Shown here: one piece after another, positions 24,729-60,443 of the stretch
Layout: the number at the start of each line of letters is the position of its first letter
Numbering within the stretch: position 1 is the stretch's first letter
Translations under genes and position numbers: made by a program
Origin: an uncultured Atopobium sp.
Lineage (GTDB): Bacteria > Actinomycetota > Coriobacteriia > Coriobacteriales > Atopobiaceae
NCBI GenBank assembly: GCA_946997485.1
Contig: CAMPVF010000002.1
Coordinates: 95,987 to 159,986 of the forward strand
Length of the DNA: 64,000 bases
Direction of reading: 5' to 3'
The notes under the pieces: model-generated
The model's database searches: none
Told to the model about the DNA's origin: nothing
What the model saw: only the letters and a program-made list of their open reading frames with translations

Positions 24729-25772
24729 ATGTCTCTGTTCGATTCATTTTTTGGCGAATATGAAGGCGATTTAGCCATCGATTTGGGTACAGCCAACACG
24801 CTTGTTGCCGTGCGTGGCCAGGGCATCGTGCTTAATGAGCCGTCTGTTGTTGCTATCGATAAAAGCGAAGATCGCGTGCTTGCGGTTGGCGCCGATGCAA
24901 AACGTATGATTGGTCGTACACCAGGCTCTATTACTGCCGAGCGCCCACTGAAGGATGGCGTTATTGCCGATTTTGATGTAACTGAAGTTATGTTGCGCTA
25001 CTTTATCGAAAAGGCGCGCGGTAAGCGTCGTCATCCCTGGAGCCCGCGTCCAAGCGTGGTTGTTTGTGTTCCTTCGGGCGTAACGTCAGTAGAAAAACGC
25101 GCCGTGTTCGAGGCAACCATTTCTGCTGGTGCGCGTCAAGCATACCTTATCGAAGAGCCTATGGCGGCTGCTATTGGTGCCGATTTACCTATCGAAGACC
25201 CAACCGGATCGATGGTTGTTGATATTGGTGGTGGTACTACCGAGGTTGCCGTTATTGCTATGGGCGGTATTGTTGTGTCGCAGTCCATTCGTACAGCGGG
25301 CGATGAATTCGATCAAACTATTCTTGAACATGTGCGCGATGCTTACAATTTGTCGATTGGTGAGCGCACTGCCGAGGACATTAAAATTAAAGTTGGTAGT
25401 GCTGCTCCTCTTGCAGAAGAGCTCGATGTTGAGGTAAACGGCCGCGACGTTATGAGTGGTTTGCCAAAAACCGTACGTATCGAAAGCGAAGAAATTCGTC
25501 GTGCGCTCGACAAACCGTTGGACGAAGTTACCAAAACGGTAAAAGATGCGCTCGACCTTACGCCTCCCGATCTTGCCAGCGACCTTATGTACTACGGCGT
25601 ACTCCTTACCGGCGGTGGCGGTTTGCTGCGCGGGCTCGACCAGCGCCTTCGCGACGAAACCGGTGTACCCGTTAATGTAAGTCCTACCTCACTTGAAAAC
25701 GTTGTAAACGGTTGCGCAAAGGTGCTTGAAGCAAATGCTCTTTCGGGCGGTTTTGTACAAAGCTCCAATTAG
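24729..25772 (+). CDS. mreB: rod shape-determining actin homologue MreB
   Basis: DLAIDLGTANTLV and the actin ATPase fold, 347 aa. Confidence 0.9.
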   Translation: MSLFDSFFGEYEGDLAIDLGTANTLVAVRGQGIVLNEPSVVAIDKSEDRVLAVGADAKRMIGRTPGSITAERPLKDGVIADFDVTEVMLRYFIEKARGKRRHPWSPRPSVVVCVPSGVTSVEKRAVFEATISAGARQAYLIEEPMAAAIGADLPIEDPTGSMVVDIGGGTTEVAVIAMGGIVVSQSIRTAGDEFDQTILEHVRDAYNLSIGERTAEDIKIKVGSAAPLAEELDVEVNGRDVMSGLPKTVRIESEEIRRALDKPLDEVTKTVKDALDLTPPDLASDLMYYGVLLTGGGGLLRGLDQRLRDETGVPVNVSPTSLENVVNGCAKVLEANALSGGFVQSSN

Positions 25773-27652: not shown

Positions 27653-29695
27653 ATGAGTGTTGTTGGTCTTATCGTTATAGTTCTTGCCTGTCTTCTTATT
27701 GCGTTTCTTGTTGTCTTTATTGTACTTGGCAAGCGCTCAAAAAAGTTTACGTTTGATATTGGAGGATCGGTACCGCGCGCGGCAGGTGGGGTGCAGGTGT
27801 CGCCGCACAGTACGTTCAAAACGCGCATAATCGCATGTCAAGTGGCATGTGGCGCCGTTATTGCAACGCTTGCAACACGGCTGTGGAATATGCAGCTTCT
27901 CTCAAACGAGTCGTATATTAAGCAAGCCGAAATGAACCGTACACGCACGATTGCCCTTACTGCAGCACGCGGCCGTATCCTCGATCGCAATGGCGAAGTG
28001 CTTGTGGCAAACCGCCCGTCGCTTTGCGTGTGCGCGCAGCCGCACGTACAAGACGACTCCATCGAAGTGCGTCTTTTATCCAACCTTGTTGGCATCCCTG
28101 AGCAGGTTATTCGTCTTAAAATACAAGATACGGCACAAGGTCCACAAAAACCGCGCTGTATTGCAGTTGATATTTCACGCCGCGTGGTGGCGTTTGTGAG
28201 TGCGCACCAATCGGTGTTTGAGGGCGTGTACATTGAAGATCGCTCTCAGCGCTCCTATCCAAAGGGGAGCCTAGCTGCGCATGTACTTGGCTATACGGGT
28301 GCTATTACCGAAGAGCAAATTAAAGCGGCTGCTCAAAACCAAGACCCCGACGCCAGCGATGGTAGCATTACCTACGAAACGGGCGACATTGTGGGGCAGG
28401 CGGGTGTAGAAGCGCAGTACGAAAACGTGCTTCAGGGCATCAAAGGTGAACAAGTTGTGCACGTAGATGCCGATGGTAACATTCTTAACCGGAGCGGCTC
28501 TGTTGATGCGCAAGCGGGCTCTGATGTCGTGCTTACGCTCGATTCAAAGGTGCAACAAGCTGCAGAAACGGCACTTCAAACACATCTTACGAGGCTTCAG
28601 CAAAGCGGACGCAGCGATTGTCGTTCGGGCTGCGCGCTTGTTGTAGATGTAACGAATGGCGATATCATCGCTCTTGCATCGGCGCCAACGTTTTCGCCCA
28701 ACGTGTTTGTAGGCGGCATTTCAAACGACGATTGGGATGCACTTAGCAGTCCTACCAGCAACAACCCGCTCCTCAACCGTGCTATTGGTGGACTGTATCC
28801 TTCGGCATCAACCATAAAACCCCTAAGTGCTATAGCCGCGCTCAATTATGGCATTTCCACGTTTCAGTCAACCTACATGTGTACGGGTTTTTGGACGGGC
28901 TTTGGTAAAAACTATGGTCAGTACTGCTGGCTTCACACAGGGCACGGATCTATGACTTTGCAATCGGGCATTACTTATTCGTGCGACGTGGTATTTTACG
29001 AGGTAGGCAAGGGCTTTTTTAATTCGTCCGATAACGAAGGTTTGCAAAAAACCTTTAAGCGCTATGGTTTGGGTGCATTGACTAATATCGATTTGCCGGG
29101 CGAAGTTGCAGGACGTATTCCCGATGCTGCCTGGAAAGAGCAATACTTTTCGTCTTACGACGCACAAGCGCGCGCGTGGCGTGGCGGCGATTTAACCAAC
29201 CTTGCCATCGGGCAGGGCGATTTACTTATTACGCCGCTGCAGCTTGCAAGTGCTTACTGCGCGATTGCAACGGGTGGCACGTGTATGAAACCGCATATTT
29301 TAAAGTCGATAAAGTCGAGTACAAATTCTGGCTCGGTTATCGATTATAAGCCTGAAGTTCGCTTTACCGTTACCGAAGACGAACCTACGATGTCGATGAT
29401 TCACACAAGCCTTACGGGCGTTGTCTATGAAGAGTCGCAGGCGCAGGCCGCTCATTTTACCAATATGAAGGAAAAAATAGCTGGTAAAACGGGTACTGCC
29501 GAAACCAATAAAAAAGATCCAACTGGCTGGTTTGTGGCATATGCGCCCGCCGATAAGCCGCAATACGTTGTTGTGTCGCTTATCGAAAACGGTGGGTTTG
29601 GTGGTGATAGTGCGCTGTATGTTGTGCGCGACATACTCGGTGCGCTGTATAACGAGCCCGATACGGCGTCTATTGGCAAAGCAACGAGAGACTAG
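27653..29695 (+). CDS. mrdA: penicillin-binding protein 2 (elongasome transpeptidase)
   Basis: An N-terminal TM, a PBP dimerisation domain, and a transpeptidase domain with the SxxK, SxN and KTGT motifs (KTGTAE). Confidence 0.85.
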   Translation: MSVVGLIVIVLACLLIAFLVVFIVLGKRSKKFTFDIGGSVPRAAGGVQVSPHSTFKTRIIACQVACGAVIATLATRLWNMQLLSNESYIKQAEMNRTRTIALTAARGRILDRNGEVLVANRPSLCVCAQPHVQDDSIEVRLLSNLVGIPEQVIRLKIQDTAQGPQKPRCIAVDISRRVVAFVSAHQSVFEGVYIEDRSQRSYPKGSLAAHVLGYTGAITEEQIKAAAQNQDPDASDGSITYETGDIVGQAGVEAQYENVLQGIKGEQVVHVDADGNILNRSGSVDAQAGSDVVLTLDSKVQQAAETALQTHLTRLQQSGRSDCRSGCALVVDVTNGDIIALASAPTFSPNVFVGGISNDDWDALSSPTSNNPLLNRAIGGLYPSASTIKPLSAIAALNYGISTFQSTYMCTGFWTGFGKNYGQYCWLHTGHGSMTLQSGITYSCDVVFYEVGKGFFNSSDNEGLQKTFKRYGLGALTNIDLPGEVAGRIPDAAWKEQYFSSYDAQARAWRGGDLTNLAIGQGDLLITPLQLASAYCAIATGGTCMKPHILKSIKSSTNSGSVIDYKPEVRFTVTEDEPTMSMIHTSLTGVVYEESQAQAAHFTNMKEKIAGKTGTAETNKKDPTGWFVAYAPADKPQYVVVSLIENGGFGGDSALYVVRDILGALYNEPDTASIGKATRD

Positions 29696-29699
29696 CATT

Positions 29700-31109
29700 A
29701 TGGCACAAATACCTCAATTTCACTCTTCATCGCACATGCACAGAAAACCGTTGCATATACAACGCGCAATGTCCAAGAAAAAGGGCGCTCGGCTGCAGCC
29801 TTCGAATACCTTAGGCGTGGGCGCTCCTAATCCCGTGCGCGCGCAAACGCAAACGCGCAGCCATTCCCACAAGCGCAGCGAAAAAGCGCGTGCTCAGCTT
29901 TCGCGCGGCTCGCGCATGCCTTCGTTTTTTGGTCTTTCTACCAGTCTTGCTGTGGCATATGCCAAGGTAGGGGGCATGAGTAGGAGCTTTTCGCGCGGAA
30001 AAGCACCTGTCTACCTGCCCAACCTTATTTGCGTGCTCGGCCTGCTTATTTTTGGTACGTTTGTTATGTACACCGCGTCGCTGGCAATTCCTAAGGTATC
30101 GTTTGTACGCCATTTGTTTGGTATTGCACTTGGCGTTATCGCTGCTATTGCCATGTGGCGTTACGATTATCGCAACTTGCGCCGGCTTACCTACGCCCTG
30201 CTTATTCTTAATGTAGTGCTCATTATTATGCCGATGATACCAGGCATTGGCTATCATGCAAAAGGTCTTACTGGATGGGTAAAGCTGCCGCTTATCGGTC
30301 TTCGCTTTCAGCCTTCCGAGCCTTCAAAAATTGTCACCATTTTGCTTATGGCTGCTATGGGCTCTGCGTACAACGGAAAAATTACCGAACTTAAAGAGTA
30401 TTACAAGCTTTGCGGCATTCTCTCCATTCCGTTTTTGCTTATTTTGCTTCAGCCCGACTTAGGTACTGGCCTTATCGTGCTTATTAGCGGCGCTACTATC
30501 ATTATTTGCTCGGGCGCAAAACGCCTGTGGATATTTGTTACTGTGTGTGCGCTTGTGGGCTTAAGTGCGCTGGTTATCGTTACATCTTCCATTGAAGGTT
30601 TGCCGCATATCCTTAAGCCCTACCAGCTGCACCGCCTTATCGTGTTTATCGATTCGTCTGTTGACCCTTCGGGCTTTGGTTACAACTTGCAACAGGCAAA
30701 AATTGCCGTTGGCTCGGGCGGTATGTTTGGCAAGGGGATAGGTAATGCAACGCAATCGGTAAGTGGCTTTTTACCCGAAGCACACACCGACTTTGTGTTT
30801 GCCCTGCTTGCAGAAGAGTTTGGCTTTATGGGCTCTGCTGTGTTGCTCGGGCTTTTTGGCACACTTATTTTTTCGACATATCTGTTGGCGCAGCGTCTCG
30901 AAAATGCTTTTGGTAAACTGGTATTAGTTGGCTGTGCTACGATGTGGATGTTCCAGCTGTTACAAAATGTTGGTATGTGTATTGGCATTATGCCGATTAC
31001 CGGCATACCGCTTCCGTTTATTTCGTTTGGCTCATCGTCGATGGTAGCACAGCTGCTTGCTGTTGGCCTTGTGCAGTCGGTGTGGCGACACATACCAAAA
31101 GCCGCTTAA
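29700..31109 (+). CDS. rodA: SEDS-family peptidoglycan glycosyltransferase RodA
   Basis: FtsW/RodA family sequence (PSEPSKI, GIPLPFISFGSSS) with ~100 aa of basic N-terminal extension. The ATG at 29700 follows the mrdA stop, and the ORF track start at 29532 overlaps mrdA. Confidence 0.85.
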   Translation: MAQIPQFHSSSHMHRKPLHIQRAMSKKKGARLQPSNTLGVGAPNPVRAQTQTRSHSHKRSEKARAQLSRGSRMPSFFGLSTSLAVAYAKVGGMSRSFSRGKAPVYLPNLICVLGLLIFGTFVMYTASLAIPKVSFVRHLFGIALGVIAAIAMWRYDYRNLRRLTYALLILNVVLIIMPMIPGIGYHAKGLTGWVKLPLIGLRFQPSEPSKIVTILLMAAMGSAYNGKITELKEYYKLCGILSIPFLLILLQPDLGTGLIVLISGATIIICSGAKRLWIFVTVCALVGLSALVIVTSSIEGLPHILKPYQLHRLIVFIDSSVDPSGFGYNLQQAKIAVGSGGMFGKGIGNATQSVSGFLPEAHTDFVFALLAEEFGFMGSAVLLGLFGTLIFSTYLLAQRLENAFGKLVLVGCATMWMFQLLQNVGMCIGIMPITGIPLPFISFGSSSMVAQLLAVGLVQSVWRHIPKAA

Positions 31110-31183
31110 GCGCCGCGCCCGGCAGCCCAGCGCTCGGTCTTCACCTGTGCATCAACAAACGCCGTGCTCAAAAGGATTGTATT

Positions 31184-32344
31184 ATGATACAACACGCAAT
31201 ACACACTGCTTCTTATGGTTCCTCAGCGCCGCAGGTGCTGGTATTTTGTGTGTCATCAGGCGTATCTGCCACCCTTGTTTCGCAGCTTCGCTCAGCGTTT
31301 GTGCCGCGTACGCGCGATGTTACGGTAGAAGTAACGACGCCTGCATCTCTTGTGCACTATCGCGCAAATTACGTTGTTCATCTTGCCTGCGCGTCTGCGT
31401 CTGCCACGCCTCATGCGGACGACGCTTCTTTTCGTGCGGCTTCTCAGCTGCGTGCAAACGATGATGCCGAGCGTGTTGTATCGTATGTTGAGCGTACTGG
31501 CTGCAACCTTGTTGTACTTGCGTCTTCTGCTCGTGAACTTCCGCTTGCTTATCTTGCTCGCCAGGCAGGAAATGTTGGCACAACAATGTCGTGGCAGGTG
31601 TTTACGTCACCCGAACCTCGCACGTTGTGTCTGCAGCTTATTGACATGCTTTTGCATACTCCATCTGCAGCGTTGTATTGTGCCGCGTTTGCCTGCTGCC
31701 ACATGCGCGCCGCCCACACACTTATTTCAACAAGCGCTACCAGCGTGCGTGCTCTGAGCGAAAAAAAGCACCTTGTAGTGCCTTTCTTGCCACGGATATT
31801 TCGTATTGGCGATATGCCTTTTATGGTGTTCGAGCAGCTGTCCATGGTGCAGCGTTTGCAAAATAAGGGGCTTGCACCTCGCAGCTCATCTTTACGCACG
31901 TCATTTCATCCGGCACTTTTATGCGCACTTGCTTGCTGCGCCTTTGGTGCGCGTGCGTGTGCGCGCGGTATAACGCGCCGCGTGCCGTTTGGTGGTTTTC
32001 TTGTTCGTCCTGCTATTGCATCGTTGTGTACGTATGTGTTTGGGTATGCGTACCTGCTAAGCACCTATATGGCGTCAGCTGAGCCGCAGCGTTTGGCAAA
32101 CGCGTCTGCCCACCCAAACGAAGGTGCACCAGCAGCGGCTATAGCACCAACAGCACCTACAGCTACCACGCAAAACGCGGCTCTTTCTCAAGCGCCTGTC
32201 CCTGCGCCTACACAAACGTGCAAATCTTATGTATATCACCCAGAAACGGATGCAAAATTGAGCAATATGCAAGATAATAAGGAGCTGTCTTTTAATGCTC
32301 AACAGCTACATACGCGTGAGTACATAGATATCACAAGTTCTTAG
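31184..32344 (+). CDS. hypothetical Ala/Cys/Ser-rich protein of unknown function
   Basis: A long ORF with no competing ORFs on other frames and AAAAGGA before the ATG at 31184. The N-terminal segment QVLVFCVSSGVSATLV faintly resembles Cys-loop phosphotransfer folds, and there is no confident family. Confidence 0.4.
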   Translation: MIQHAIHTASYGSSAPQVLVFCVSSGVSATLVSQLRSAFVPRTRDVTVEVTTPASLVHYRANYVVHLACASASATPHADDASFRAASQLRANDDAERVVSYVERTGCNLVVLASSARELPLAYLARQAGNVGTTMSWQVFTSPEPRTLCLQLIDMLLHTPSAALYCAAFACCHMRAAHTLISTSATSVRALSEKKHLVVPFLPRIFRIGDMPFMVFEQLSMVQRLQNKGLAPRSSSLRTSFHPALLCALACCAFGARACARGITRRVPFGGFLVRPAIASLCTYVFGYAYLLSTYMASAEPQRLANASAHPNEGAPAAAIAPTAPTATTQNAALSQAPVPAPTQTCKSYVYHPETDAKLSNMQDNKELSFNAQQLHTREYIDITSS

Positions 32345-32537
32345 CCGGCTTTGTGGTGCATCTATACTGTCTTATTTGGGGAGGCACATCTCACACCCCT
32401 AGCTGTAAAAGACACCAACACACTCATATGTACGTTACAACACGCTACATACGCCTTGTGGTCACATATTGACCTTACCTTTGTGGATGGCTATGATGTA
32501 GAGCTGTTGTACACAATTAATGATGAAGGGTAGACAC

Positions 32538-32891
32538 ATGTACGCAATCGTTACCACTGGTGGCAAGCAGTATAAGGTTGCCAAGGGCGATATCTTTAGT
32601 GTTGAGAAGCTCGACGCGCAGCCTGGCGACAAGGTTAAACTTGACGTTCTTTTGCTTAACGACGGCAAAAAAACTATCGTTGATGCTGCTACCTTAGCAA
32701 AAAAGAAAGTCACGTGCGAAGTTCTCGATCAATACAAAGATAAAAAAGTTATCGTCTTTAAACTTAAAAAGCGTAAGCGCTATCACCGCACTCGTGGTCA
32801 CCGTCAAAACCTCACCAAGCTTATGGTTTCGAGCATGCCCACCACTCGTGCAGCAGCAAAAAAAGCTGACACAGCACAAGACGAAGCATAA
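32538..32891 (+). CDS. rplU: 50S ribosomal protein L21
   Basis: MYAIVTTGGKQYKV... Confidence 0.9.
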   Translation: MYAIVTTGGKQYKVAKGDIFSVEKLDAQPGDKVKLDVLLLNDGKKTIVDAATLAKKKVTCEVLDQYKDKKVIVFKLKKRKRYHRTRGHRQNLTKLMVSSMPTTRAAAKKADTAQDEA

Positions 32892-32938
32892 CGGTTACTG
32901 CTCATTTGTTAGATAACGATTACGAAGGTAGGTAAAAC

Positions 32939-33187
32939 ATGGCTCACAAGAAAGGTTTGGGATCATCCCGCAACGGACGCGATTCCAACGCACAGCGTCT
33001 TGGCACCAAGGTATACGGTGGTCAATCTATTAAGGCTGGTCAAATCATCGTTCGTCAACGTGGTACGCACATTACTCCTGGCGAAAACGTTGGCCGTGGT
33101 AAAGACGACACGCTGTTTGCACTTAAAGATGGTGTTGTAGAATTTGTTCGTGGTGCTAAGCACTATGTACACGTTCGCACCGCATAA
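32939..33187 (+). CDS. rpmA: 50S ribosomal protein L27
   Basis: [22 protein letters not shown]... Confidence 0.9.
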
Positions 33188-33210
33188 CAGCCGCGTTATA
33201 GCACCTAAAC

Positions 33211-33240
33211 AACCGCTTGCCATCCGGTGAGCGGTTTTTT
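33211..33240 (+). terminator. intrinsic terminator after rpmA
   Basis: AACCGCT-tgccatccggtg-AGCGGTT followed by TTTTTT. Confidence 0.55.
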
Positions 33241-33360
33241 AATGATAGTAGAAGGGAATACAGAAGGGCATTTAGTGTAGTTATGACATCTCATGTATCG
33301 CACCATCATCACATGCATATTCGCTGGCATAATTTGCTGGACAGTAATCCTTCGTGCCCC

Positions 33361-34617
33361 ATGAAGCATCTGCGCTTTCACGAGCGTGCGTCGATTGTGG
33401 GACATGTTGGCATGATGCTGTTGTCCTACGGCACAGGAGCCTGGCGTGTGCGCCAGAGCATGAACGCTATCGCGCGCGTACTCAATCTTACGTGCAGCGC
33501 TGATATTGGTCTTGTGTCGCTCGATTACACGTGTATCGACGACGAAGGACACAGCTACACACAGGCACTCAGCCTTGCCACAACAGGTGTTAACACCTCA
33601 AAGCTGCATCAAATGGAATTGTTTGTTGACCGCTTTGTTGCTCATGCTGATACCTACACGTTGGGCGAGTTTATCGAGCAGCTCGATGACGTTGAACATT
33701 TGCCGCTTAATTATAGTGCCCTTCAAGCGGCACTTGCGTCGGGGCTTGCGTGTGCAGGCTTTATCTTTTTGCTTGGCGCGGGTATTTACGAGATGATTTG
33801 CTGCTTTTTTGGCGCAGCTGTGGGGAATTATGTGCGCCGCACGCTTATCGATCACAAAATTACCCTTATTGGCCAGGTAGCAGGCGGTGTTGCTCCGGCG
33901 TGCGTGGTATATGTTCTGGTGCATACACTGCTTATGATGGTTCTTCATCCAGCGGGTCCCCACCTTGAAGGCTACATTGGCGCGCTGCTTTTTGTTATTC
34001 CAGGATTTCCTTTTATTACTGCTGGGCTCGACTTAGCAAAGCTCGATATGCGTTCTGGTATTGAGCGGTTAGTATATGCGCTTATCATTATCGTTGTTGC
34101 AACGGTAGTAGGGTGGACGTGCGCCCTTGCTCTTAATTTGCAGCCGCACGATCTTATTCCGCTTGCAGGTTTAACGCCTCTCACACTTACCATTCTGCGA
34201 CTTATTACCAGCTGGTGTGGTGTATTTGGCTTTTCGATTATGTTTAATACCGAATGCAAAATGGCTATGCTCACGGCCGCTATTGGCGCCGTTGCCAATA
34301 CTATCCGACTTAGTCTGGTATCGTGGACACTTGTGCCCGCCTGTATTGCCGCATTTATCGGCGCGCTCATTGCCGGTATGATGGCATCTTTGGTGCGCAA
34401 ACGCATTGGTTTTCCGCGCATTGCCCTTACTGTGCCGTCGATTGTTATTATGGTTCCCGGCCTGTATATGTATCGCGCGATGTATAGCTTTGGCTCCCTT
34501 AACATTCCCACCGGGTCACACTGGTTTTTGGAATCGCTGCTTATCGTGTTAGCGCTGCCACTTGGTCTTATCGTGGCACGTATTATTAGCGATCCAGAGT
34601 GGCGTAAATTTAGCTAG
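33361..34617 (+). CDS. putative threonine/serine exporter family protein (ThrE-like, two-domain)
   Basis: ~10 TM segments in two halves, with an N-terminal cytoplasmic segment and the G..WRV motif resembling ThrE/YjjP-YjjB fusions. The ATG at 33361 follows the rpmA terminator, and the ORF track opens at 33217. Confidence 0.5.
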   Translation: MKHLRFHERASIVGHVGMMLLSYGTGAWRVRQSMNAIARVLNLTCSADIGLVSLDYTCIDDEGHSYTQALSLATTGVNTSKLHQMELFVDRFVAHADTYTLGEFIEQLDDVEHLPLNYSALQAALASGLACAGFIFLLGAGIYEMICCFFGAAVGNYVRRTLIDHKITLIGQVAGGVAPACVVYVLVHTLLMMVLHPAGPHLEGYIGALLFVIPGFPFITAGLDLAKLDMRSGIERLVYALIIIVVATVVGWTCALALNLQPHDLIPLAGLTPLTLTILRLITSWCGVFGFSIMFNTECKMAMLTAAIGAVANTIRLSLVSWTLVPACIAAFIGALIAGMMASLVRKRIGFPRIALTVPSIVIMVPGLYMYRAMYSFGSLNIPTGSHWFLESLLIVLALPLGLIVARIISDPEWRKFS

Positions 34618-34644
34618 CGAGAATTTGCACGTTTTTGTTTCAAC

Positions 34645-34673
34645 TTGATAAACAAACCACAACTCCGTAGCAT
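34645..34673 (+). promoter_or_regulatory. candidate sigma-A promoter for leader/ECF transporter transcript
   Basis: TTGATA (34645-34650), a 17 nt spacer, then TAGCAT (34668-34673). Confidence 0.35.
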
Positions 34674-34736
34674 TGCGCGCGGCTATGTGATTTACTACAG
34701 CGTAGAGAACACAACTCAACGTTCAAGGAGGTCACC

Positions 34737-34811
34737 ATGATTGCTCAAAATGCTCGCGTCGTTTCATATTCATCACAGTTTTGCGCATGGTGGTGGCGTA
34801 CAATTTCATAG
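34737..34811 (+). CDS. Trp-rich leader peptide MIAQNARVVSYSSQFCAWWWRTIS (attenuation leader)
   Basis: An AAGGAGG RBS sits 6 nt before the ATG of a 24-codon ORF ending in TAG. It contains three consecutive TGG codons (34788-34796) and lies just upstream of a terminator. Confidence 0.6.
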   Translation: MIAQNARVVSYSSQFCAWWWRTIS

Positions 34812-34841
34812 GACTCTGATACACACATCCATGATTTGTGC

Positions 34842-34874
34842 GGACTTTCAGAGTAACTTTGAAAGTCCTTTTTT
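34842..34874 (+). terminator. intrinsic terminator of Trp attenuator
   Basis: GGACTTTCA-gagtaac-TTTGAAAGTCC followed by TTTTTT. The upstream GGACTCTGA (34811-34819) can pair with TCAGAGT in the terminator's 5' arm and loop, giving an alternative antiterminator. Confidence 0.6.
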
Positions 34875-35016
34875 ATGATTTTTTGCGTCCTATTGTTTTT
34901 TGCACGTACGTTCCGTATCTGTTGTCCTTTGTTTTGCATATTGTATTTCTTCGCACACGCGACCACACCGGTGTAAATCAAGGCACACAACACAACTTGA
35001 GTTTTAAGGAGTTACC

Positions 35017-35628
35017 ATGTCTTCTCAATCATTTGAAACCACAGCCGCTACTACAAATGTCGCTCCCACACCAGCACCTGGCACTGCAGCCGTAAAAAAA
35101 TCGAGCATCGACATCGCGTCGCTTACCATTGTTGCGGTGTTGCTTGCAGCTGGGTTTATTCTCGACCTTACTGTTGGAAAAGCGCTTGCTATTACCGGTA
35201 TTCAACCCGAGTTTATTATTTCGTCGTACTGTCTTGCACTGCTTTTGTTGCGTCTTAAATTTCACCAAGCAGCGATTGTTGGATTGCTTGCCGCTGCGCT
35301 CATCCAGCTTAACACGTCAATTCCTGGTCTTGAGTTTGTGTGCGATATCCCTGCTGCTGCAATTTGCGCGCTTGCTATTAGTGCGCTTGGTAAACACAGC
35401 TTAAGGCCGATTGTTCCTGCAGCGCTCACCTTTGTAACTACGCTTATTTCCGGTTTTATTTTTGCAACGTGTGCGGTTCTGTTTTTCCTTAAGCTAGAGC
35501 CCGTTGCGCTGTTAGGTATGGCGCCGCTGGTAGTAAGCACCGCTGTTGCAAATGCACTTGTTGTTGAAGTGCTTATTCGTCCACTTAATGCGGTTGTATC
35601 AAAAACAGCCACCGTTCGTGCAAGGTAA
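35017..35628 (+). CDS. ECF transporter substrate-specific (S) component, predicted tryptophan-specific (TrpP-like) by regulatory context
   Basis: 203 aa with 6 predicted TM helices and a TAAGGAG RBS. It lies immediately upstream of the ecfA-ecfT pair and downstream of the Trp leader/attenuator. Confidence 0.65.
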   Translation: MSSQSFETTAATTNVAPTPAPGTAAVKKSSIDIASLTIVAVLLAAGFILDLTVGKALAITGIQPEFIISSYCLALLLLRLKFHQAAIVGLLAAALIQLNTSIPGLEFVCDIPAAAICALAISALGKHSLRPIVPAALTFVTTLISGFIFATCAVLFFLKLEPVALLGMAPLVVSTAVANALVVEVLIRPLNAVVSKTATVRAR

Positions 35629-35631
35629 TGT

Positions 35632-37620
35632 ATGGAAGCTATGTCTGCGCGCTCGCATGATGCGTCCCTCGATGCATCATGCCCTGCGTTTTTGTTAGAT
35701 GATGTGTCGTTTCGCTATGCGCTTGGCGCATCTGATGAAACTGAAAGCGCTGATAGTAATGAGAGTAGCGGCGTTGATGGTTCGCCTGCTGATGCAGCTG
35801 CTTATGCAGCCGCTGCGAGGCAGGCACCGTGTGCACTCTCGCACATTAATCTTTCGATTGAGCGCGGTGATTTTTTAGGCATCATTGGGCCTTCAGGTGC
35901 TGGTAAAACTACGCTTGCCTGTCTTTTTTCGGGTGCTATACCGCACCATTATGGTGGCGAGCTCTCAGGCACCGTTCAGCTGTTTTCGCACGATACAAAG
36001 GCGCTTAGCCTTACCGACATTGCGCGCTTTGTTGGTCTTGTTATGCAGGATATCGATGCGCAAATGGTTGCTAGTGTTGTTGAAGATGAGCTATTGTTTG
36101 GTCTTGAAAACTTTGGTGTGCCAGCAGGGGATATTCCTTCGCGTATTGAGGAAGCGCTGCATCGTATTGGTATTGAATCATTGCGCAATCGCACCATAGC
36201 CACGCTTTCGGGCGGGCAAAAACAAAAAGTGGCCCTTGCTGCTATTATTGCCCTTAAGCCTTCGGTATTGGTGCTCGATGAGCCCACCTGCGCGCTCGAT
36301 CCTGCATCTTCGCGTACCATCTATGAGCTTTTGAGTGAACTTAATCGGAGCTTTGGTATTACGATTATTGCCATTGAGCAAAAAGTGGCCCTTTTAAGTG
36401 AGTTTTGTTCGCATTTAGCTGTGTTGCACGAAGGCTCTCTTGCGGCATATGGCACAACGTCGGATGTACTTTCGCAGGTAGATACCCTTGATGCTATTGG
36501 TATTAGTTATCCTCGAACCACGCGGTTCGTGCGTTATGTAAAACAGGCGGGCTTTGAGCCGGATACGCCCCTATATGTGCGTGTTGATGATACGGTTCAT
36601 TTTGCCGAGCGCGTACTTAACTTGGATCATACGCCCGCATTCGAGCCGGGTTCAACTTCAAGTTCAGCTTCAAGTTCAACTTCAAGTTCAGCTTCAAGTT
36701 CAACTTCAAGTTCAGCTTCAAGTTCAACTTCAAGTTCAACTTCAAGTTCAAAAGCAGGTTCAATGTGCACAGAGCGCAAGCCTGCAGTTCAATTTTCTCA
36801 TGTATCGTTTTCGTATCCAACTAATACCTACTCGCTTAACGATGTTTCCTTTGAGGCATACCCGTCCGAAATTTTGTGTCTTGTCGGCCAAAACGGTGCA
36901 GGTAAAACAACTATAACTAAGCTTATTAATGGTCTTTTGAAGCCGCGTTCTGGCAGCGTGTACATCGATGGCACCAAAACAAACACCAAAAAAACAAGCA
37001 CGATTGCGCGCAGTGTTTCAACTCTTTTTCAAAATCCCGACAGAATGCTTTCGTGCGAAACCGTGCTCGATGAGGTTATGCTCTCGTGCACGCTTGTTGG
37101 ATATACGCCTCACGATGCCCGTGAGCGCAGCCTGCGCGTTATTCACCAGCTACATCTTAACCCTGAGGCCAATCCTTTTCTGTTATCGGCAGGACAGCGG
37201 CATATTGTTGCACTTGCGGCAACAATTGTTACCGAGCCCAAGGTTCTCATTTTAGATGAGCCTACCTGCGGTCTTGATTATGCTGAATGCTGCTACGTTA
37301 TGCGTGTTGTTCAAGATTTGCGTGCGCGCGGCTGCTGTGTTGTTATGGTGTGTCACGATATGGAAGTGGTGCTCGACAATGCAACACGTTTGGTTGTACT
37401 TGCCGCGGGTGAGCTTGTGGCGCAAGGAAGTATTTCAGACATTTTTTCTCAAGATGCACTGTGTCAGCGCGCGTGTTTGCGCCCGCCACTGCTGGTAGAT
37501 GTTGCGCTTCAGCTTAGTAATACCTGCAAGCTTGCGTGTTCCACTACATACGATGCTGCAGCGCTTGCGCAGGTTGTTATTAGTGCTGCGCAGCATAACG
37601 GAAAGGTGTGCCATGACTAG
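35632..37620 (+). CDS. ecfA: ECF transporter ATPase, fused duplicated EcfA1-EcfA2 with Ser-rich repeat linker
   Basis: Two complete ABC domains, each with Walker A (GPSGAGKTT / GQNGAGKTT), signature (LSGGQKQKV / LSAGQRHIV) and Walker B (LVLDEPT / LILDEPT). They are separated by a (SSAS/SSTS)n linker. Confidence 0.85.
   Translation: MEAMSARSHDASLDASCPAFLLDDVSFRYALGASDETESADSNESSGVDGSPADAAAYAAAARQAPCALSHINLSIERGDFLGIIGPSGAGKTTLACLFSGAIPHHYGGELSGTVQLFSHDTKALSLTDIARFVGLVMQDIDAQMVASVVEDELLFGLENFGVPAGDIPSRIEEALHRIGIESLRNRTIATLSGGQKQKVALAAIIALKPSVLVLDEPTCALDPASSRTIYELLSELNRSFGITIIAIEQKVALLSEFCSHLAVLHEGSLAAYGTTSDVLSQVDTLDAIGISYPRTTRFVRYVKQAGFEPDTPLYVRVDDTVHFAERVLNLDHTPAFEPGSTSSSASSSTSSSASSSTSSSASSSTSSSTSSSKAGSMCTERKPAVQFSHVSFSYPTNTYSLNDVSFEAYPSEILCLVGQNGAGKTTITKLINGLLKPRSGSVYIDGTKTNTKKTSTIARSVSTLFQNPDRMLSCETVLDEVMLSCTLVGYTPHDARERSLRVIHQLHLNPEANPFLLSAGQRHIVALAATIVTEPKVLILDEPTCGLDYAECCYVMRVVQDLRARGCCVVMVCHDMEVVLDNATRLVVLAAGELVAQGSISDIFSQDALCQRACLRPPLLVDVALQLSNTCKLACSTTYDAAALAQVVISAAQHNGKVCHD
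36649..36762 (+). repeat. in-frame tandem repeat, 24-nt unit (ttcaacttcaagttcagcttcaag) x ~4.5 encoding SSTSSSAS repeats
   Basis: Directly visible as alternating ttcaacttcaag/ttcagcttcaag units. It also creates spurious ORFs in both alternative frames (QLQV..., LNLK...). Confidence 0.8.
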
Positions 37621-38359
37621 TTTTTTTGAATATACAGCTGGCACTACGCTGCTTCATCGTGCACATCCTCTCGCAAAGCTGCTTCTTGCATTCTCGGTTA
37701 TTATTGCTGCGTTTTTAACCGATAAACTGTATGTGCTTGGTGCCTTATGCATTATTATTCTTGCAACAAGCGTCAGCTGCGGTCTTTTTTCGCAGCTTAA
37801 ATCGCTGCTATCTGCACTTATCGGCCTATCGTTGGTTATGCTTATTATCCAATGCGCGCTTAATAGGCATGGCGATGTGCTCGCGTTGTTTATTACCAAT
37901 TTGGGCCTTATAACAGGCGCACGTGCAGCGCTTCGTCTGTGGTGTTTTGCGCTGCCGCTCGTGTGTTGTTTTGCACTTACGCGCCTCGAAGATCTTGCCA
38001 ATTGTGTGGTTATGTACCTGCATGTTCCGTACACTTACGTGTTTACGCTCATGACGGCAATTCGGTTTGTTCCTATTTTTTCAAGCGAAATGAAACATAT
38101 CACCGATGTCCAAACGGCGCGTGGGGTAGAATTTGATACCACAAATCCTCTTAAAAAACTCAAGCTTATGATGCCGCTTATTGTGCCTTTGCTTGTTGTG
38201 TCGGTGCGAAAAGCCGACATGATTGCCCTTGCTGCCCAGCAGCGTGGCTTTTATTTGCGGCAGGCTCACTCGTGCTCAAAAACATATCCTGTACATCTGT
38301 GTGATGCACTTTTGGTTAGTGTTGGATGCTGTTTAATTATTACTGCAATCCTTATATAA
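37613..38359 (+). CDS. ecfT: ECF transporter transmembrane (T) component
   Basis: A CbiQ/EcfT-like polytopic membrane protein with the ARGVE motif (QTARGVEFD). The ATG at 37613 overlaps the ecfA stop, and the ORF track start at 37499 lies inside ecfA. Confidence 0.75.
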   Translation: MTSFFEYTAGTTLLHRAHPLAKLLLAFSVIIAAFLTDKLYVLGALCIIILATSVSCGLFSQLKSLLSALIGLSLVMLIIQCALNRHGDVLALFITNLGLITGARAALRLWCFALPLVCCFALTRLEDLANCVVMYLHVPYTYVFTLMTAIRFVPIFSSEMKHITDVQTARGVEFDTTNPLKKLKLMMPLIVPLLVVSVRKADMIALAAQQRGFYLRQAHSCSKTYPVHLCDALLVSVGCCLIITAILI

Positions 38360-38413
38360 TGAAATGTGCGTATGTATGCGCACCTACAAGCAGTAATACT
38401 TAAAGGAGACATT

Positions 38414-39907
38414 GTGCCAACAAACACCTTTACTGATATTTGTCGCATTTTTGTAAAAGGCGGCGATGGCGGAGCTGGCTGTACATCATTTCGCCGTGAA
38501 GCATATGTGCCTAAAGGCGGGCCTGATGGAGGCGACGGTGGGCATGGTGCAAACATAATTTTGCGTGCAAACCCGCAGGTATCGTCCCTGGTTGCATACC
38601 GTTTTAAGCATCATTTTAAGGCTGAGCGCGGAACGCATGGCCAGGGTGCGCGTAAAGCTGGTAGCGACGGAAAAGACATGATTCTCGATGTACCGCTTGG
38701 TACTGTTGTGCGCGAAGTCGATCCAAAAACAAAAAAGCCGCTCTATGTGATTGCTGATATGTGTCATGCAGGCATGGAAGTTGTTGTTGCAAAAGGCGGC
38801 GTAGGCGGTCGCGGTAACATTCACTTTGTTACGTCGGTGCGCAGATCACCTGCATTTTCAGAAAAAGGCGAGCCTGCTCGCGAACACGAAATTGAACTTG
38901 AAATGAAGCTTCTTGCCGATGCCGCGCTTGTGGGCATGCCATCGGTTGGTAAAAGCTCTATTATTGCACGTATATCTGCTGCTCGTCCAAAAATTGCCGA
39001 TTATCCTTTTACCACGCTCACACCCAATTTAGGCATGGTACGTGCGTGTTCGGGTGCATCGTTTGTTGTTGCCGATGTGCCCGGTCTTATCGAAGGTGCA
39101 AGCTGTGGCAAAGGTCTTGGCCATCAATTTTTGCGTCATATCGAACGCTCGGCTGTTATTTTGCACGTTGTTGACATGACGGGCGGGTTTGAAAGCCGCG
39201 ATCCTGTTGTTGATTATCACACCATTAATAACGAGCTTGCCGCGTATGCGCCGATGCTTGCTGAGCGCACGCAACTTGTTATTGCAAACAAGTGCGACAT
39301 GCTAACCGATACAACGCCTATAGAGCGTTTGCGTGCAGCTGCCAAGCAAGACGGGTTTAGCTGTATCGAAATGTCTGCGCTTACAGGCATGGGCGTTGAT
39401 GCTGCTATCGAAACCATCGCGCAGGTTGTGTCGCGCCTTCGTCCCTCTATCGATGCGTATGTTTCGCAAGACTCGCTTGAAGCGGCAGAGCACGTGCGCT
39501 TCCAGCAACAACACCGCGAGCGCATTATTCACATTGCGCAAGAATCTACTGGTATTTGGCGTGTTTCTGGTGAGCTTATTGAGCGTATGGTTATTCAAAC
39601 CGATTGGGATAACGATGAAGCGCTTATGTATTTGCAGCATCGCTTCGACAGGCTTAAGCTCGAAGATCGTCTGCTTAAGGCGGGCGCACATAAGGGTGAT
39701 GAAATTCGCATTTTAGGGTATTCGTTTACGTTTGAAACTGCAGATGATCTTGAGTCGGAATTTGCCGGTGAATGTGCAGGTGATGATGAGCTTGATGCTG
39801 CGCACACTGCAGCGTTTGAGCTTGAGTGTGATGATAGTAGCAGTGATGGTGCCGATGCTCCCGCAGCTGCTGATGCAGCTGCGGCGTGCGACGATATAGA
39901 CGGGTAG
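38414..39907 (+). CDS. obg: GTPase Obg with acidic C-terminal tail
   Basis: Obg fold glycine-rich N-terminus (KGGDGGAGCTSFRRE...GGPDGGDGGHG), G-domain motifs (GMPSVGKSS, DVPGLIEGA, NKCD) and an OCT-like region. AAAGGAGA precedes the GTG at 38414. Confidence 0.9.
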   Translation: MPTNTFTDICRIFVKGGDGGAGCTSFRREAYVPKGGPDGGDGGHGANIILRANPQVSSLVAYRFKHHFKAERGTHGQGARKAGSDGKDMILDVPLGTVVREVDPKTKKPLYVIADMCHAGMEVVVAKGGVGGRGNIHFVTSVRRSPAFSEKGEPAREHEIELEMKLLADAALVGMPSVGKSSIIARISAARPKIADYPFTTLTPNLGMVRACSGASFVVADVPGLIEGASCGKGLGHQFLRHIERSAVILHVVDMTGGFESRDPVVDYHTINNELAAYAPMLAERTQLVIANKCDMLTDTTPIERLRAAAKQDGFSCIEMSALTGMGVDAAIETIAQVVSRLRPSIDAYVSQDSLEAAEHVRFQQQHRERIIHIAQESTGIWRVSGELIERMVIQTDWDNDEALMYLQHRFDRLKLEDRLLKAGAHKGDEIRILGYSFTFETADDLESEFAGECAGDDELDAAHTAAFELECDDSSSDGADAPAAADAAAACDDIDG

Positions 39908-44040: not shown

Positions 44041-44589
44041 ATGAACAACACTGGCACGATGTGCAACCACCACCAACAGCGCTGTCTCAAACTTTGGCTA
44101 AGCGCGCTTATCTGTTGTGTGCTTGTTGCATTCGACCAGCTGGTAAAATGGCATATCCGCTCGTCTTTTGCGGTAGGCGAGGTGCAGCCTGGCATTGCGG
44201 GCGTGTTTGAATTTTGCTACGTGCAAAACAGAGGCGCTGCGTTTGGTGCGGCTCAAGGTGCTCAGGTTATCTTTTGTATCTTTGCTGTCGTCATTGTGGG
44301 TTTTTGTATCCGCGTGCTTGTGCGCTCTTCGCGGCTTGCGCTCCTTGAACATGCATGCATACTTGCTATTTGCGCAGGTGCCCTTGGCAATGCTATCGAT
44401 AGGGTAGCGCTTGGCTATGTTGTCGATTTTATCAACCTGAGGTTTATGACGTTTCCTGTGTTCAATCTTGCCGATATCTACATTACCTGCGCTGCTCTTG
44501 TTGTTATGGTGATGCTCCTTGTGTGCCCTTCGCGCGTATATGCGCTTATTTCTTGTGGCAGCCGTACTTCAACCAATTCGAAAGAATAG
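44041..44589 (+). CDS. lspA: lipoprotein signal peptidase (signal peptidase II)
   Basis: Conserved SPase II motifs (NRGAAFG, NAIDR, FNLADIYI). Its position after ileS is the conserved one. Confidence 0.8.
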   Translation: MNNTGTMCNHHQQRCLKLWLSALICCVLVAFDQLVKWHIRSSFAVGEVQPGIAGVFEFCYVQNRGAAFGAAQGAQVIFCIFAVVIVGFCIRVLVRSSRLALLEHACILAICAGALGNAIDRVALGYVVDFINLRFMTFPVFNLADIYITCAALVVMVMLLVCPSRVYALISCGSRTSTNSKE

Positions 44590-58979: not shown

Positions 58980-60443
58980 GTGTTTAGCAGTCTTTCTGAT
59001 AGATTACAACAAACGTTTTCGCAGCTTCGCGGCAAGGCGACTCTTACCGAACAAGACATTGCTGCAGCTATGCGCGAAATTCGTATGGCGCTTCTTGAAG
59101 CCGACGTTAACTATCGCGTGGTAAAAGAATTTGTTGCAACGTGCAAGGAAAAATGCTCAACTGCAGAAGTGCTCTCTTCGCTTACGCCTGCACAAAATGT
59201 AGTTAAGGTAGTATTAGACGAGCTTACACGCTTGTTGGGTAGCACATCATCGGGTTTGGTGCTCTCTTCTGGCCGCACGCCTAACGTTATTATGCTTGTT
59301 GGTCTGCAAGGATCGGGTAAAACAACTGCTACCGCTAAGCTTGCATATTTGCTAAAACAGCAGGGTAGAGCACCACTTGTTGCTGCCTGCGACACACACC
59401 GACCAGCTGCTGCCGATCAACTTCAAACGCTTGCACATGAGATTGGTGTTGGTTTTTATCGCGCTGACAATACAGCTGCGCAAGATGTTGCAGCTCAGGC
59501 TATCCAAGATGCAGTAGACAAACTTAAAGACATAGTTATTATCGATACCGCTGGCCGCACTCAGCTCGATGAAGAAATGATGCTTGAAGCTATTGCCATT
59601 AAACAAGCGGTAAAGCCCGATCAAATTCTAATGGTTGTCGATGCTATGGCTGGTCAGGACATCGTTAACGTTGTAAAAGAATTTTCGGCGCGCCTTGATT
59701 TCGACGGTGTTATTATCTCTAAGCTTGATGGTGACGCTCGTGGTGGTGGCGCGTTATCTGTTCGTGAAGTTACTGGTAAACCCATTAAATTTGTATCCAT
59801 GGGCGAAAAACCCTCCTCTCTTGAGGTATTTCACCCCGATAGGATGGCAAAACGTATTTTGGGCATGGGTGATGTTGTTGGTATTATCGAACAAGCACAA
59901 AAAGTTGCCCAAAAATCGGACATCGAACAAGCTGAGCGTATGTTGCGCGAAGGATTTACGATGAACGATATGCTTTTGCAAATGCAGCAAATAAAAAAGA
60001 TGGGTGGTATTCAAAAGTTGTTGGGATCGCTTCCTGGTGGTGATAAAGCGCTGCGTGAGGGCGCTGCCGAACTTGGAAGCGAGCAAATCAAAACAACCGA
60101 AGCTATCATTTATTCGATGACAAAACAAGAGCGCTTACACCCTAAGATTATTAACGGTCAGCGCAGAAAACGCATTGCTCAAGGTTCTGCCACCAGTGTA
60201 CAGCAGGTAAATCAGCTGCTTAAACAGTGGGGCGAAATGAATAAGATGATGAGCAAAATGAAACAGCTTACGCAGGCTGGTAAAGGCGGCAAAAAAGGCA
60301 TGCGCCAGATGCGCGACATGATGCGTTCGCTTCAGCAGTCAAATGGTGCTGCCGGCCGTGGTGGTATGGGTGGCTTTGGCGGTTTTGGCGGCGGCATGGG
60401 CGGCATGGGCGGCTTTGGCGGGAAAAATCCCTTCGGTTTCTAA
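58980..60443 (+). CDS. ffh: signal recognition particle protein Ffh with Gly/Met/Phe-rich C-terminal tail
   Basis: An NG domain (GLQGSGKTTA, DTAGR, SKLDGDARGG), an M domain and a C-terminal (GGMGGFGG)n tail. GTG start. Confidence 0.9.
   Translation: MFSSLSDRLQQTFSQLRGKATLTEQDIAAAMREIRMALLEADVNYRVVKEFVATCKEKCSTAEVLSSLTPAQNVVKVVLDELTRLLGSTSSGLVLSSGRTPNVIMLVGLQGSGKTTATAKLAYLLKQQGRAPLVAACDTHRPAAADQLQTLAHEIGVGFYRADNTAAQDVAAQAIQDAVDKLKDIVIIDTAGRTQLDEEMMLEAIAIKQAVKPDQILMVVDAMAGQDIVNVVKEFSARLDFDGVIISKLDGDARGGGALSVREVTGKPIKFVSMGEKPSSLEVFHPDRMAKRILGMGDVVGIIEQAQKVAQKSDIEQAERMLREGFTMNDMLLQMQQIKKMGGIQKLLGSLPGGDKALREGAAELGSEQIKTTEAIIYSMTKQERLHPKIINGQRRKRIAQGSATSVQQVNQLLKQWGEMNKMMSKMKQLTQAGKGGKKGMRQMRDMMRSLQQSNGAAGRGGMGGFGGFGGGMGGMGGFGGKNPFGF

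Follow-up and report, generated by a model that had tools for sequence, protein, structure and literature searches.

A probable trpL-type attenuator with a conserved triple-tryptophan leader peptide upstream of TrpP-like ECF transporter operons in Coriobacteriia and Gardnerella

Introduction

In the trpL leader of E. coli, a short open reading frame (ORF) led by a Shine-Dalgarno (SD) sequence carries tandem Trp codons near its end, and the RNA is divided into segments that pair as 1:2, 2:3 (antiterminator) and 3:4 (terminator with a U-run). The stop codon is placed such that a terminating ribosome masks segment 2, and termination is the default when the leader is not translated. Here, we analysed a 64-kb stretch of DNA from an uncultured Atopobium sp. 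(the window, used below for this whole stretch) and describe an element that has each of these features. It consists of a 24-codon leader ORF with three consecutive Trp codons (WWW), followed by an intrinsic terminator, and it stands ahead of an operon encoding the S component, the fused ATPase (A-A') and the T component of an energy-coupling factor (ECF) transporter, with an S component that resembles TrpP. Very probably, the element is a trpL-type ribosome-mediated attenuator that senses charged tRNA-Trp and controls this dedicated ECF importer operon. Unlike trpL, which has two Trp codons and governs trpEDCBA, it has three in the window, would govern an uptake system, is found in Coriobacteriia and Gardnerella, and shares neither sequence nor covariance-model similarity with the E. 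coli leader (RF00513). It would work like trpL and is not a sequence member of the Rfam Trp_leader family.

Other described systems resemble the locus in its protein family or in its leader peptide. In Firmicutes, trpP (yhaG) ECF S components are reported to be under TRAP or T-box control, and a TRAP-binding leader carries nine to eleven (G/U)AG triplets that are 2-3 nt apart. The operon described here has in common with these the protein family (TrpP, PF17099, an ECF S component) and an import that would be raised at low Trp or Trp-tRNA. It differs from them in that the predicted sensor is the translating ribosome instead of TRAP or uncharged tRNA, in that the S gene is accompanied by its own A-A' and T genes, and in that the S protein falls below the Pfam threshold. 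TnaC senses free Trp via its nascent peptide, in which a single Trp is critical, and blocks Rho, and its operon is induced by excess Trp. Like tnaC, whose operon includes a Trp permease, the present element has a short leader ORF upstream of an operon. In contrast to tnaC, it has an intrinsic terminator, a peptide that is not conserved and, as read here, a starvation logic.

Within the Actinobacteria, a survey by Seliverstov and colleagues in 2005 covered the upstream regions of biosynthetic and tRNA-synthetase operons only (PMC1262725). The trp and trpS attenuators of Corynebacterium and Streptomyces from that work belong to the same phylum and the same mechanism as the element in the window, with double or triple UGG runs and GC-rich terminators followed by U-tracts, whereas they precede biosynthetic operons or tRNA synthetase genes and carry the motif gGCC-rGCy-GGCC, as compared to GGUCGA / UCGACC plus UGAGUC / GGCUC here (PMC1262725). 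A C. glutamicum gene called trpP is transcribed apart from the trpL-led operon (PMC11995493). Outside the Proteobacteria, His-leader attenuators that may also control a transporter were predicted in Firmicutes by the same comparative logic (PMC9413887); these concern a different amino acid and phylum and a classical ABC instead of an ECF transporter, and the sequences are unrelated. Our literature searches found no Trp leader peptide ahead of an ECF/TrpP operon, with one 2015 proceedings paper on Actinobacteria Trp attenuators as possible prior art, and no leader peptide of any kind described in Gardnerella or Coriobacteriia. A sequence-only reading of this stretch had suggested that the arrangement may be undescribed, and neither Rfam nor the literature, the 2015 paper aside, contradicted this. 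In our judgement, the mechanism is ordinary; what is new, or at least not yet catalogued, is its target and the clade, and the functional prediction is of use.

Results

Organization of the leader in the window

The same reading had proposed a trpL-type attenuator in front of the transporter operon. The leader, upstream of the S gene that starts at 35017, contains the following parts.

34645..34673, + strand: promoter-like site with TTGATA at 34645-34650, a 17-nt spacer and TAGCAT at 34668-34673; 9 of 12 sigma-70-like positions match, putative
34725..34731, + strand: Shine-Dalgarno sequence AAGGAGG of the leader ORF, 5 nt ahead of the ATG
34737..34811, + strand: leader ORF of 24 codons plus TAG (34809-34811) with the product MIAQNARVVSYSSQFCAWWWRTIS, from the sequence reading and the ORF list
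34788..34796, + strand: TGG TGG TGG, the predicted sensing site, four codons ahead of the TAG and invariant in relatives
34797..34843, + strand: hairpin of segments 1:2 (anti-antiterminator or pause hairpin), in which CGUACAA..UCAU.GGA pairs with UCC.AUGA..UUGUGCG
34813..34819, + strand: 5' strand of the antiterminator, ACUCUGA, 2 nt past the stop codon and 17 nt past the last Trp codon
34848..34854, + strand: 3' strand of the antiterminator in the alternative fold, UCAGAGU, within the 5' arm and loop of the terminator
34842..34874, + strand: intrinsic terminator by folding, with its stem at 34842-34868 (12 bp, 3-nt loop) and T6 at 34869-34874

The strong ribosome-binding site and the 24-codon WWW ORF, with its Trp codons four before the stop, were thus as the sequence-only reading had described them. 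Its terminator was recovered in part: the hairpin begins exactly 30 nt past the leader stop and ends in U6, as had been claimed, while the claimed 9-bp stem with a 7-nt loop gave way to a stem that extends to 12 bp with a 3-nt loop. With -16.1 kcal/mol (z = -4.8), none of 200 shuffles was as stable. An alternative pairing that disrupts the terminator had also been predicted and was borne out, as the helix ACUCUGA:UCAGAGU invades the terminator 5' arm and loop; the antiterminator fold of 34809-34857 has -12.5 kcal/mol (z = -2.7), an energy that one of 200 shuffles reaches. In addition, the leader folds into a 1:2-type hairpin, which is absent from the earlier account and in which the codons just past WWW plus the stop are paired with 34829-34843 (-12.5 kcal/mol, z = -2.6, two of 200 shuffles as good). 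In unconstrained folds, this hairpin and the terminator form together. The leader can adopt mutually exclusive structures, and their geometry fits the footprints of ribosomes at the Trp codons and at the stop.

The sequence TGGTGGTGG occurs four times in the window compared to 0.21 expected. The three extra copies, at 25226-25234 (+), 44067-44075 (-) and 59741-59749 (+), were considered as further leaders and rejected, since all of them are out of frame within long genes. Two of these copies read as Gly-Gly-Gly in actin/MreB-like and Ffh-like proteins (identities assigned by eye).

One ORF of 24 codons is weak evidence when taken individually, and so is an alternative helix of 7 bp. It is because of its conservation in relatives, and not from the single sequence, that the leader stands beyond chance.

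Conservation of the leader ahead of related operons

In a scan with one genome per species, we collected 80 loci encoding relatives of the window S protein. These derived from Atopobium sp. Marseille-P4126, another Atopobium metagenome-assembled genome, Gardnerella, Lancefieldella, Olsenella, Tractidigestivibacter and Collinsella; the Gardnerella-type genomes numbered 11 (L003-L009, L011-L014), one of which is labelled only Bifidobacteriaceae bacterium. In Atopobium sp. Marseille-P4126 (L001), the S protein is 95% identical and the leader is identical to that of the window. A WWW mini-ORF was located directly upstream of the matched S gene in 52 of the 80 loci. The other 28 had first seemed leaderless: in 23 of them, the matched gene is the second of tandem S genes and the WWW leader lies 0.85-1.05 kb upstream, before the first one, and the remaining five are truncated by contig ends, with one still showing the terminator. 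Overall, 75 genome loci extended far enough upstream to be judged, and in all 75 the WWW leader and terminator preceded the operon, so that the tandem-Trp mini-ORF is indeed conserved upstream of the S-component orthologues, as the sequence-only reading had anticipated.

Comparison of the 47 unique leader sequences revealed which parts are kept. The WWW block is invariant in 47 of 47, and a GC-rich hairpin with a T-run follows each leader, giving a terminator in all of them. In every lineage inspected, a strong SD sequence and an ATG precede the leader ORF, with SD spacing as in the window. Beyond WWW, the peptides vary, for example MRNMNAQARDTFDAARMWWWQTSLWRSLL, MRATCTQQWWWNNLSFSGQR and MKNTMKSLNNWWWRDANTIGRQ. 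What is conserved is thus the SD sequence, the start codon ATG, WWW in its frame and the placement of the stop, and not the peptide sequence. A variant was observed in Coriobacterium glomerans PW2 (L081, ~2765-2900, CP002628.1), where the leader MDTLSDTIAAWAWRDACPLGRD has W-A-W replacing WWW, and hence two non-adjacent Trp codons, with the nine codons to the stop, the GGUCGA, the UGA and the terminator as usual.

The gene upstream of the operon varies between genomes, being thrE in the window, rpmA with its own terminator in Lancefieldella-like contigs and a DAG-kinase-family gene in C. glomerans. Because these neighbours differ, the leader element travels with the transporter operon.

To approach conservation from the leader side, a leader-only DNA pattern (TGGTGGTGG-N18-GGTC-N5-TGAG) was run on metagenome contigs. 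It matched 120 stretches, in 42 of which the hairpin and T-run were also present; the others were chance matches within genes. A clean TrpP-like ORF follows immediately downstream in 34 of the 42 contigs, three have a TrpP-like ORF that is frameshifted, partial or was initially mis-framed, one has only a remnant, and four end too early to evaluate. Accordingly, a TrpP-like gene or its remnant was present in 38 of 38 evaluable metagenome contigs, none of which carried a copy of the leader ahead of any other gene type. The remnant, in L102 (1909-2240), consists of an intact leader and terminator followed by only the last S-gene codons (…PIKKALKVED*), and looks like what a deletion left of the first S gene.

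In many Collinsella, Olsenella and Tractidigestivibacter operons and in some of Gardnerella, two diverged TrpP-like S genes stand in tandem, each ~40-50% identical to the window protein, and share one WWW leader and one A-A'-T module (L041, L042, L047, L048, L050-L056, L059-L063, L068-L070, L074, L076-L078 and L080, and also L003, L008, L012, L057, L060, L065, L066 and L073). This arrangement suggests that a common Trp signal governs two substrates or two affinities.

Alternative RNA structures across lineages

Structural conservation was analysed on 35 unique leaders from Coriobacteriia (alignment A3). In the terminator, 97.7% of the cells are paired and 22 are double-change cells, a covariation reached by none of 500 shuffles. 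A 1:2 helix is also present in Coriobacteriia leaders: immediately past the stop, UCRCGCCA is complementary to UGGCGYGA of the W2-W3-Arg codons, and pairing holds in 85.6% of the cells of this helix, compared to 52% or less when the partner is slid. In 12 sequences, a synonymous change from CGC to CGU is matched by a change from G to A on the opposite strand (C-G to U-A), again a covariation seen in 0 of 500 shuffles. The helix corresponds to the 1:2 pairing of classical attenuators, and the Trp codons form part of its segment 1.

The antiterminator of the Coriobacteriia is built from two helices. GGUCGA, which spans the Gly-Arg codons and in which GGUC is invariant, pairs with UCGACC / UUGACC of the terminator loop and 3' arm, and UGA-GUCYY pairs with the terminator 5' arm. 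The former helix is 97% paired but invariant, and the latter is 75% paired. In L002 and in Gardnerella, the antiterminator is formed by GUUURCUCU(A/G) pairing with (C/U)RGRGUAARC, and in the window by ACUCUGA:UCAGAGU, i.e. its sequences are replaced across clades and its arrangement is kept. Between the Gardnerella loci L003 and L006, an A-U pair of the antiterminator is changed to G-C, with the terminator 3' arm changed to match (compared by eye).

We also performed an unbiased duplex search of all upstream sequence against the terminator 5' arm, the loop and the first 6 nt of the 3' arm. The best strand was always located at the leader stop, in every lineage: relative to the stop, it spans -12..+7 in most Coriobacteriia, -13..+6 in L002 and L003 and -4..+22 in the window, and it falls within -27..-1 in the long-ORF leaders of Gardnerella. 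The window duplex has z = -3.4 (p = 0.01). When ribosomes were masked in the folds, a ribosome placed on WWW left an alternative structure of -12 to -22 kcal/mol, and one placed on the stop left only -2 to -9 kcal/mol.

The distance from WWW to the stop is four codons in the window and L001, nine in most leaders and 12-13 in most of Gardnerella. Despite this variation, the antiterminator strand starts 16-22 nt past the last UGG in all lineages and always lies inside the footprint of a ribosome at the stop. A ribosome stalled at a codon has its leading edge ~12 nt downstream (PMC4833913), and the start of the antiterminator strand falls just past the leading edge of a ribosome stalled at WWW. 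Beyond the TAG of the window leader, the next stop in frame is a TAA located in the loop of the terminator (DSDTHIHDLCGLSE), and the heptamer ACTCTGA, which is non-coding in the window, is coding (T-L-K) in Gardnerella leaders. The leader of the window and L001 looks like one that was shortened by a new stop codon with the RNA pairing strand kept.

A GUAA-type terminator loop and the ACUCUGA strand are common to the window and Gardnerella. Likewise, the window S protein is 45-54% identical to its Gardnerella counterparts versus 42-47% to those of Lancefieldella, a member of its own family (L015-L040). These sequence similarities suggest that the whole leader and operon may have been transferred horizontally between Atopobium-like bacteria and Gardnerella.

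Comparison with known RNA families

The window leader matched no Rfam family up to E = 10, including RF00513 (Trp_leader) and RF00230 (T-box), and the leaders of L002, L006, L016, L043 and L060 matched none up to E = 1. A scan of 15 loci at the Rfam gathering thresholds returned only signal recognition particle (SRP) RNA and no T-box. Regarding TRAP, no run of four or more (G/U)AG triplets was present within 34675-35016.

The regulated operon and its surroundings

Downstream of the leader, the window carries the three genes of the transporter.

35017..35628, + strand: ECF S component of 203 aa, divergent and TrpP-like by fold and homologues, with predicted tryptophan specificity
35632..37620, + strand: fused ECF ATPase A-A' of 662 aa (TIGR04520 and TIGR04521, E ~1e-113; two ABC_tran domains)
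37499..38359, + strand: ECF T component of the CbiQ family (PF02361, E = 1.9e-19), start uncertain

Direct Pfam and NCBIfam scans of the S protein gave nothing, and its family was reached via homologues and fold. Of 29 homologues, 13 match Pfam TrpP (PF17099) at E up to 1. With 44.9 bits, the homologue P0009, which is 54% identical to the window S protein, exceeds the cut-off of 27.2 and covers model positions 4-162 of 169, and P0021 reaches 26.4 bits. An AlphaFold model computed on the family alignment (predicted local distance difference test, pLDDT, 81.5) has six helices, so that the product of 35017-35628 is predicted to adopt the six-helix fold of S components. These data support the assignment of the 35017 gene product as an ECF S component from a divergent branch of the TrpP family. 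This agrees with the sequence-only reading, which had taken it for an ECF S component, probably TrpP; BioY or ThiT, an identity that would have spoken against tryptophan, was checked, and the protein is neither, its homologues matching TrpP. From the WWW leader and the family resemblance, tryptophan is the predicted substrate. Genes for EcfA/A' and EcfT adjoin the S gene, as in a dedicated (group I-like) ECF transporter, and the gene order S(-S2)-AA'-T is kept in all related loci.

The longest ORF of the T component shares 122 nt (37499-37620) with the 3' end of the A-A' ATPase gene, and the same holds for L001. Probably, the T component starts at a later codon, or the ATPase and T genes share this stretch in different frames.

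In the window, the gene order is rplU (32520-32891), rpmA (32939-33187), a thrE-like exporter gene (33217-34617), the leader, trpP-ecfAA'-ecfT and obg, which starts at ~38366-38430 (cluster region 32520-39907). In the Lancefieldella-like contigs L083 and L084, the transporter operon lies directly between rpmA and obg; apparently, the widespread rplU-rpmA-obg cluster has received the operon by insertion. Within 38200-38600, no + strand terminator-like site was found from 38359, where the T gene ends, to obg, and no promoter-like site anywhere; + strand terminator-like sites are present at 38230-38248, inside the T gene. Because no such site separates the T gene from obg, this essential GTPase gene may be partly co-transcribed with the Trp-regulated operon.

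Further upstream, an ORF of 466 aa at 30944-32344 (+) has no Pfam family and a weak match to the NCBIfam membrane domain TIGR04222 (E = 9e-4). It overlaps the end of a FtsW/RodA-family gene (29532-31109) and may or may not be a real gene.

Discussion

The sequence elements presented here, their conservation, the alternative folds with their geometry and the identity of the transporter fit a trpL-type attenuator, and each prediction that this model makes at the sequence level and that could be tested came out in its favour. Transcription would start near 34680, and a ribosome would translate the 24-codon leader. If Trp-tRNA is plentiful, the ribosome should reach the TAG at 34809, and its footprint of ~12-15 nt downstream would hide ACUCUGA (34813-34819). 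With this strand hidden, the terminator (34842-34868 plus U6) would form and transcription would end ahead of the S gene. If Trp-tRNA is scarce, the ribosome is expected to stall at UGG UGG UGG (34788-34796), whereby the 1:2 hairpin (34797-34843) would melt and ACUCUGA become free. It could then pair with UCAGAGU (34848-34854), blocking the terminator and allowing RNA polymerase to enter the transporter genes. When no ribosome is present, ACUCUGA would be enclosed in the loop of the 1:2 hairpin, and because of this enclosure termination would be the default state without translation.

Several observations weigh against this interpretation. The promoter-like TTGATA-17-TAGCAT that the sequence-only reading had pointed out is present and is the only sigma-70-like site found within 34300-35200, where ~1.5 are expected by chance; such a chance-level match is weak evidence alone, and the promoter, ribosome stalling, Trp-dependent read-through and Trp as the substrate are all properties that we infer. 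The window S protein matches no Pfam or NCBIfam model, even at E = 10. In the Coriobacteriia antiterminator, whose strands are nearly invariant, no measure of covariation rose above shuffles; the antiterminator, which complementarity and geometry support in every lineage, therefore rests on position, energy and its cross-clade replacement, and not on covariation. The duplex energy of Collinsella aerofaciens-type leaders was not above that of GC-rich shuffles (p ~0.3-0.4). For L006 of Gardnerella, a partial terminator beat the antiterminator in truncated-transcript folding, an approach in which 6 nt of the 3' arm were free to pair and whose results were muddled. Moreover, the terminator is more stable than the antiterminator in almost every sequence, the exception being L040 with the ribosome stalled; given this thermodynamic advantage, the model has to rely on the kinetics of folding during transcription, as it does for trpL. 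Finally, the geometry of the window and L001 leader is the tightest, since only four codons follow WWW, compared to nine elsewhere.

These points have to be balanced against other explanations of the locus. The individual weakness of the 24-codon ORF and the 7-bp helix, together with a promoter match at chance level, would also be expected if the mini-ORF had arisen by chance and the hairpin either terminated the thrE-like gene at its 3' end or stood on its own as a terminator, uncoupled from any regulation. However, the WWW ORF and terminator recur in 75 of 75 loci though the upstream neighbour changes, and where this neighbour is rpmA it has its own terminator. In addition, a search with the leader alone yields only trpP-type operons, and the SD sequence, ATG, in-frame WWW and stop position are kept while the peptide varies. 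We therefore give a chance origin next to no weight; judging from this conservation in the sequences compared, it appears refuted in practice. Another kind of sensor, such as a T-box, a TRAP-like protein, a riboswitch or an RNA-binding protein, might instead control the terminator, with the mini-ORF being incidental, and the reported TRAP or T-box control of Firmicutes trpP (yhaG) lends this some plausibility. Yet no Rfam family, T-box included, scores on the window leader up to E = 10 or on five others up to E = 1, 34675-35016 lacks a run of (G/U)AG triplets, the leader of ~140 nt is too short for a T-box, and what is conserved are translation signals and Trp codons, all of which makes such a sensor very unlikely.

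If the mini-ORF is taken as functional, its product could still act as in TnaC, with the nascent WWW peptide and free tryptophan arresting the ribosome and with induction by excess Trp or via Rho-dependent termination. Trp-containing leader peptides that govern a Trp permease do exist (tnaC-tnaA-tnaB of E. coli), and a C-terminal Gly-Arg-x is conserved in Coriobacteriia leaders. But the peptide outside WWW is not conserved between lineages, and the Gly-Arg codons are conserved as nucleotides (GGUCGA) that pair with the terminator. Furthermore, every leader has a canonical intrinsic terminator followed by a U-run, the antiterminator strand would be masked by a ribosome at the stop, which is the opposite of what induction by arrest needs, and an importer induced by an excess of its substrate makes little physiological sense; we regard this mode of sensing as highly improbable. 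An attenuator could also be real and the substrate be indole or a precursor or derivative of Trp instead of L-tryptophan itself, in which case the leader would report only the status of Trp-tRNA. The divergence of the window S protein, which is too large for a match to Pfam TrpP, and the two paralogous S genes under one leader in many loci, a hint of more than one substrate, point in this direction. On the other hand, close homologues match the full TrpP model (P0009, 44.9 bits versus 27.2), and the starvation-induced uptake of tryptophan itself is the simplest reading, such that we consider a different substrate improbable. Attenuation of a tryptophan importer operon by a translating ribosome remains our preferred interpretation.

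On balance, we lean towards regarding the leaders as an undescribed 'trpP leader' family of coherent phylogenetic range that would represent the standard control of Trp ECF importers throughout Coriobacteriales and, probably following horizontal transfer with the operon from a relative of the window organism, in Gardnerella. If true, no ECF transporter would have been assigned a leader-peptide attenuator before, and tryptophan specificity would be assigned to an S-component branch that is unnamed in Pfam and NCBIfam. With at least 47 unique sequences in which peptide, stop position and helices vary while the ribosome-footprint geometry is constant, the data set is useful for the modelling of attenuators and for a covariance model, which is absent from Rfam. 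As a natural read-out of tRNA-Trp charging of ~140 nt, the leader might also serve as a reporter in poorly tractable organisms. Leader-peptide attenuation in Actinobacteria would be widened from biosynthesis and tRNA synthetases to uptake, and to the class Coriobacteriia. For Gardnerella, Atopobium-like bacteria, Lancefieldella, Olsenella and Collinsella, which carry the operon, an unannotated membrane family and its operon would gain a functional label, that of a predicted Trp importer switched on by Trp starvation. These carriers belong to the microbiota of the vagina and gut, two settings in which the supply of tryptophan is of interest to the clinic.

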